This document shows positions 24,464 through 28,144 of a DNA stretch of 64,000 bases, in pieces. A program made the position numbers and the translations under genes. Below the pieces are notes generated by a model. It did no database searches. It was not told where the DNA came from and worked only from the letters and a program-made list of their open reading frames with translations. Each line of letters opens with the position of its first letter. Within the stretch, counting starts at the first letter, position 1. The stretch comes from Escherichia coli (GTDB taxonomy: Bacteria > Pseudomonadota > Gammaproteobacteria > Enterobacterales > Enterobacteriaceae). The DNA lies in assembly GCF_030013595.1 (NCBI RefSeq), contig NZ_CP122768.1. One strand, 5' to 3'.

Positions 24464-28144
<3,681 letters not shown>

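Follow-up and report, generated by a model that had tools for sequence, protein, structure and literature searches.

The window analysed here, a stretch of 64,000 nucleotides of Escherichia coli DNA (contig NZ_CP122768.1), carries a DLP12-like lambdoid prophage at the tRNA gene argU, and within this prophage the gene for the lambda gpA-type large terminase subunit (gene A) is interrupted by a single in-frame amber codon (Table 1). Reading from argU, the prophage is ordered as intD, early, lysis, head and tail genes and tail-fibre assembly genes, with ompT and an envY-like gene forming its left flank. A search for direct att repeats (seed 12, minimum length 14) over the stretch from argU to the left end of the prophage gave no convincing candidate, and with the att sites unmapped the left boundary is approximate. 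On the other side, the chromosomal flank (46000-64000) contains sfm fimbrial genes, folD, cysS, ppiB, lpxH, purEK and fdrA. Its best identity among 5426 complete E. coli genomes is 98.7%, with ST2747 strains as the top matches, which indicates that complete genomes sample the host lineage poorly.

Table 1. Features of the prophage and of gene A in the window, with the basis or a remark for each
Feature	Position	Strand	Basis or remark
Whole DLP12-like lambdoid prophage	4137..46190	.	tRNA, S19-141 gene comparison, flank genes; left end approximate
argU, tRNA-Arg (tct), integration site	46114-46190		tRNA search
intD integrase	44935-46098		
123-aa ORF, excisionase family phrog_2907 over full family length	44708-45079	+	family match; overlaps intD start
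nmpC-type porin, 365 aa, intact cargo	32714-33808	+	
bor lipoprotein, intact cargo	30631-30921	+	
cosN GGGCGGCGACCT	28868..28879	-	direct reading; within apparently intact lambda-like cosQ-cosN-cosB region
Nu1/nohD-type terminase small subunit, intact, 181 aa	28145..28690	-	100% protein identity to S19-141 nohD
Gene A, lambda gpA-type terminase large subunit	26245..28170	-	translation, lambda A identity, Pfam
N-terminal ORF, 442 aa, ends at amber	26842..28170	-	whole ATPase domain and first 121 nuclease-domain residues
In-frame TAG, codon 443	26842..26844	-	ancestral GAG (Glu); G>T at window 26844
C-terminal remnant ORF, 185 aa from Met456	26245..26802	-	remainder of nuclease domain and prohead-binding tail
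lom/Ail-family outer-membrane protein, intact cargo	9233-9832	-	
Complete tfa gene	5222-5806	-	
222-aa gene, phrog_2132	4499-5167	+	between tfa remnant and tfa
101-aa tail-fibre assembly gene remnant	4137-4442	-	132 nt repeated from complete tfa, 87% identity
494-aa protein, phrog_20134 (full family length)	2469-3953	+	between ompT and tail-fibre end

A guide to the gene content is the PGAP-annotated prophage of strain S19-141, which is 99.8% identical over 24.9 kb, carries the gene names intD, quuD, essD, rrrD, rzpD, bor, ybcV, ybcW, ylcI and nohD, and continues after nohD with a full lambda-like head and tail region. Its other prophage proteins, 45 of 45, align to the window over their full length and free of stops, and the genes found intact include W, portal, protease/scaffold, D, E, FI, FII, Z, U, V, G, H, M, L, K, I and J as well as the ymfK-type repressor, the Q antiterminator and the lysis genes for holin, lysozyme and Rz. 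The T gene, interrupted in S19-141 by an IS3-family insertion, is unbroken in the window. Nu1 overlaps the start of A by 26 nt in the same geometry as in lambda (191-736 / 711-2636), and 5' of Nu1 the cos region reads GACAGGTTACG/GGGCGGCGACCT/CGCGGGTTTTCGCTATTTATGAAAATTTTCCGG, where cosN and its flanks are of the lambda type by comparison with the lambda ends. An earlier reading of the same DNA, made without database searches (the sequence-only reading), had held that every morphogenesis gene other than the terminase looks intact, and this is upheld by the 45 compared genes, with cos and the excisionase gene intact as well.

Several smaller features of the prophage were recorded alongside. At the site of the excisionase ORF, PGAP gives only a 66-bp 'incomplete' HTH pseudogene in the near-identical S19-141 and DETEC-S565. 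A lambda-type G/T slippery heptamer, GGGAAAG, lies at 18775..18769 on the minus strand, where the tail assembly chaperone genes G (18751-19173) and T (18335-18769) overlap, and with the heptamer in place the programmed -1 frameshift site is conserved. Four tandem 15-nt iterons (CAGATTTTGACGGGT-like) are found at 38650-38724, inside a replication-initiator-like gene (38081-39022), an arrangement which resembles the origin within the O gene of lambda. The 494-aa phrog_20134 protein may be prophage cargo lying beyond the tail genes.

The amber codon in gene A

Gene A is read on the minus strand, where its frame (28170..26245) runs through 641 codons to the natural stop and is broken once, by a stop at codon 443. 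The CTA of the plus strand at 26842-26844 is TAG on the coding strand, and translation gives the peptides ...EQTLLRVD up to the amber codon and AINKTYTRRNGAEMSVSRICWD... directly after it. The 442-aa and 185-aa ORFs on its two sides belong to one common reading frame, and gene callers enter the 185-aa remnant as a separate GpA_nuclease fragment. The sequence-only reading had described two terminase ORFs lying in frame and parted only by this TAG, and retranslation agrees with its coordinates and peptides; the location of the gene on the minus strand, which it left unsaid, has to be added.

That translation across the stop would yield a lambda gpA-like protein, as had also been claimed, is confirmed by the alignment with lambda gene A which was then proposed as a check: gene A is 98.6% identical in nucleotide sequence to lambda A (J02459 711-2636) over all 1926 nt, and both have 641 codons. 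Identity rises to 99.3% with phage ev207 and to as much as 99.4% with E. coli chromosomal prophages. Compared base by base, gene A and lambda A show 27 differences, comprising the stop, 23 synonymous changes and 3 replacements (D185E, D320Y, and I459V), and the same comparison places GAG (Glu) at codon 443 in lambda J02459, ev207, and E. coli DETEC-S565, the nearest chromosome. As all three agree, the amber codon arose by one G>T transversion at window position 26844, read on the coding strand, and a one-base change does truncate the terminase. In the neighbouring gene W, the base at window position 26155 differs from that in 14 of 15 related loci, amber and intact alike (the exception is locus L029), and the W protein is identical to that of S19-141 despite this difference.

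An amber codon in gene A resembles the classical sus mutants, and the locus could in principle be a laboratory lambda Aam (sus) mutant prophage. However, gene A has 26 further differences from lambda, the prophage occupies argU with intD and DLP12-type early, lysis, and cargo genes (nohD, quuD, essD/rrrD/rzpD, and bor) and has no lambda immunity region, and the chromosome is not that of K-12 (flank 98.7% to the best of 5426 genomes). The lambda backbone with lambda integration and immunity modules was not found in the prophage, which has argU, intD, and a ymfK-type repressor instead, and the laboratory origin is rejected on the non-lambda backbone and the non-K-12 flank. Alternatively, the two ORFs might form a two-piece terminase through re-initiation at Met456, whose ATG stands 13 codons past the amber codon with a weak GGTG before it. 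A strong ribosome-binding site is not evident at this start, residues 443-455 would be missing, and a functional split enzyme is rejected because the split falls within a single Pfam nuclease domain. Taken together, the laboratory mutant and the two-piece enzyme are extremely improbable.

Distribution of the amber allele

The exact 442-aa product has been deposited in NCBI (STE02599.1 and STE74065.1) and in UniRef100 (A0A376H5T4; n=6, E. coli); its reading frame is found on 24-31 contigs, which come from at least ten independent samples, among them GCA_900448395.1, GCA_002517595.1, GCA_002925925.1, and seven sequencing-run assemblies, with data that include a PacBio NCTC assembly, Illumina, and Logan assemblies. 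Each amber locus departs from the window at 2-26 positions, but every one of them has T at 26844. GCA_900448395.1 is the record nearest to the window, from which 35 mismatches and 2 one-base indels separate it over 21.3 kb. A difference of only one base might point to an error of sequencing or assembly in the source genome, the more so as the porin gene of GCA_900448395.1 is split by a one-base deletion relative to window position 33639, which is itself maybe an assembly indel error. However, the identical base recurs in at least ten independent samples from different technologies and projects, which makes a base-call error very unlikely, and the truncated protein is present in two NCBI records, so that this explanation is essentially refuted. 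A read-level check of the base call, which the sequence-only reading had called for, is largely answered by the presence of the allele in many independent assemblies.

The full-length protein that is otherwise identical but has Glu443 can be translated from 6 contigs, and codon 443 is GAG in five loci that encode it. In one of these (L027), only 2 synonymous sites and the amber codon differ from the window within gene A, and the presence of the Glu443 version on a near-identical haplotype identifies TAG as a derived change on a circulating haplotype. The isolated phages ev207, 2H10, and lambda and thousands of prophages likewise have GAG at this codon. By a 71-mer centred on the stop, the TAG allele was absent from all 4381 gene copies of the 3091 complete E. 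coli genomes searched, where the best matches were one mismatch off, and from all 75 phage records, while a 33-mer with TAG had no match in IMG/VR, where the corresponding 33-mer with GAG had at least 120. This absence from genomes, phages, and IMG/VR marks the codon as a rare derived allele and not as a conserved recoding site.

The amber codon might nevertheless be read through often enough for a functional terminase, either by a host suppressor tRNA or by near-cognate read-through, since it is a lone in-frame TAG between two undamaged halves with no further decay downstream and the allele persists in several strains. Programmed read-through would be recognized by a stop conserved in homologues, whereas here the complete E. 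coli genomes, the phages, and IMG/VR have no copy of it (0/4381, 0/75, and 0, respectively). The other 45 prophage genes compared have no internal stop; their lack of in-frame TAG also excludes a reassignment of this codon. A suppressor tRNA was not found in the 64-kb window, where the sole tRNA is tRNA-Arg. In general, few natural isolates carry an amber suppressor, and a sup0 host does not support plaque formation by lambda amber mutants. Read-through to a functional level is thus quite unlikely.

Truncation of the terminase and prophage decay

Pfam assigns GpA_ATPase (PF05876) to residues 47-285 of the read-through protein (E=1.5e-50), entirely inside the 442-aa fragment, and GpA_nuclease (PF20454) to residues 322-600, which are joined only if the TAG is read through. 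A search of a PDB copy matched no solved structure of gpA relatives, and the domain limits are therefore taken from Pfam alone. The encoded chain stops at residue 442 and lacks 158 of the 279 matched nuclease residues (57%) and the whole C-terminal tail, so that the C-terminal region is removed by the truncation as had been claimed: residues 443-641 are gone, with most of the Pfam nuclease and the prohead-binding tail. Gene A thus retains the N-terminal GpA_ATPase of a gpA-type terminase, the cos-Nu1-A-W-portal synteny, and close identity to lambda A, and lacks a complete GpA_nuclease domain and prohead-binding tail on one polypeptide. Since no single polypeptide carries the complete nuclease, the gene is to be annotated as a gpA-type terminase pseudogene, and an annotation should join both adjacent 'terminase' ORFs under this one entry.

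The large terminase subunit (TerL) has its translocation ATPase at the N-terminus and its cos-nicking endonuclease at the C-terminus, and in lambda the extreme C-terminus of TerL touches the portal (PMC4856287). The lambda mutant Aam42, in which the last 5 residues of gpA are missing, still nicks DNA, fails to dock on the prohead, and gives a very low yield (PMC4856287). The present gene is like lambda gene A and Aam42 in gene, length, cos-Nu1-A-W-B synteny, and 98.6% nucleotide identity, and in both mutants an amber codon causes a C-terminal truncation which removes prohead binding. The two differ in that the allele described here is natural, lies in a non-lambda backbone, and is accompanied by 26 other substitutions; moreover, its stop at codon 443 removes the nuclease too, whereas that of Aam42 lies five codons from the end.

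On this model, release factor 1 would stop translation at codon 443 and leave a 442-residue fragment with the packaging ATPase domain, without more than half of the cosN-nicking nuclease domain and without the C-terminal tail through which terminase attaches to the prohead portal. After induction, excision, replication, assembly of proheads and tails, and cell lysis would all still be expected to proceed, while the prophage's own terminase would neither cut the concatemer at cos nor load DNA, giving essentially no infectious particles unaided. It is highly probable, judging from the domains lost, that the 442-residue chain can neither cut cos nor bind proheads and that induction would lead to lysis without DNA packaging; the expected failure to yield infectious particles alone is drawn from the phenotype of lambda Aam42.

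The locus is very probably explained by a recent nonsense mutation, Glu443 GAG to TAG, through which the large terminase subunit gene of this full-length DLP12-like prophage lost its function. Gene A is a lambda gpA gene with a natural amber codon, and the prophage, which is integrated and in which, by comparison with functional relatives, at least one essential gene is inactivated, matches the known pool of slightly defective lambdoid prophages. This is an already-known phenomenon and an ordinary early step of prophage decay, which lies within known biology and raises no new question. No second inactivating mutation is seen downstream of the stop, which implies that the lesion is young or that the region has been refreshed by recombination. 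Against this explanation stands the persistence of the allele in several strains and in two prophages of one assembly, which is compatible with neutral inheritance and could also hint at retained function or at rescue in trans.

DLP12 of K-12 shares with the present prophage the argU site, the integrase, and the early, lysis, and Nu1 (nohD) genes, going by the annotation of near-identical prophages, but the K-12 prophage is without the region downstream of nohD. In contrast, the full head and tail region is retained here and the one stop codon is the sole visible lesion, and the prophage shows in a clean natural case how decay begins, with one point mutation and the rest intact. In prophage scoring it would be classed as 'intact-looking but packaging-defective', a defect that tools which count phage genes would miss. 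The 185-aa C-terminal ORF occurs in 507 blocks of the collection and was rejected as a proxy for the amber allele, because in ten places inspected only the two copies of GCA_900448395.1 have the 442-aa partner. The other breaks of gene A found in these E. coli prophages include deletions, an IS66 insertion, and frameshifts, and so many independent disruptions of gene A indicate that terminase loss is a common route of prophage decay.

Possible rescue in trans and copies of the allele in two prophages

The sequence-only reading had considered packaging to be blocked unless the host carries an amber suppressor; suppressor rescue is indeed possible, but it is not the sole route, because terminase can also be supplied in trans (PMC4856287; PMC2669165). 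Lambda terminase acts in trans, and wild-type lambda terminase so supplied raises the yield of Aam42 phage ∼2000-fold (PMC4856287). The lambdoid prophages of E. coli O157 Sakai likewise have single lesions in packaging or morphogenesis genes (PMC2669165), and among them Sp4, although without an intact terminase, still has its DNA packaged; the enzyme responsible is most likely that of Sp14, a prophage with a near-identical cos (PMC2669165, Asadulghani et al. 2009). In Sp4, the gene for the small subunit is disrupted by an IS, whereas the lesion here is a point nonsense mutation in the gene for the large subunit.

The prophage may therefore be defective by itself and yet mobile, with a co-resident or superinfecting lambdoid phage of the same cos/Nu1 specificity supplying terminase or recombining the allele. 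In addition to the precedents of Aam42 and Sp4, its cos and Nu1 are intact, genes of this A family occur in 3787 of the 5426 complete E. coli genomes, where a single genome can have as many as 7 copies, and the amber allele is found on slightly varying flanking haplotypes that are common to intact alleles. However, in the one long-read assembly examined, both block copies are amber and cannot complement each other, and the mixing of haplotypes in short-read contigs may reflect collapsed repeats. A four-gamete-type inference of recombination among the amber haplotypes was given no weight, since chimeric contigs may arise when prophage regions present in several copies are assembled from short reads. 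Rescue in trans is compatible with a recent loss-of-function mutation and would modify that explanation rather than replace it; it is quite plausible as a modification and is put forward tentatively, as a possibility and not as the expected state. A prophage of this kind could be used for studying rescue by co-resident lambdoid prophages.

In GCA_900448395.1, the amber gene A is found in two different lambdoid prophages, at loci L030 (UFZA01000001.1) and L031 (UFZA01000003.1). One of these prophages is DLP12-like and carries bor, Rz, and a lysozyme of the lambda type. In the other, a methyltransferase is present, the Q antiterminator and the holins are different ones, and the lysozyme belongs to GH108. 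The two loci are 100% identical over ∼6.9 kb, from the middle of Nu1 (window position 28467) through gene E into FI, and the identity stops no more than 84 nt short of where the second contig ends. Such identity may reflect gene conversion between lambdoid prophages of one host, or else an effect of assembly near the end of a contig. It is also conceivable, if doubtful, that the null allele has spread by gene conversion between prophages and is kept either through a gain to the host, which would have induction without infectious progeny, or through packaging parasitism on other lambdoid terminases. Short-read contigs of other samples start exactly at the same boundary (28467 or 28478), which suggests that the two-copy repeat is also present in the genomes of those samples.
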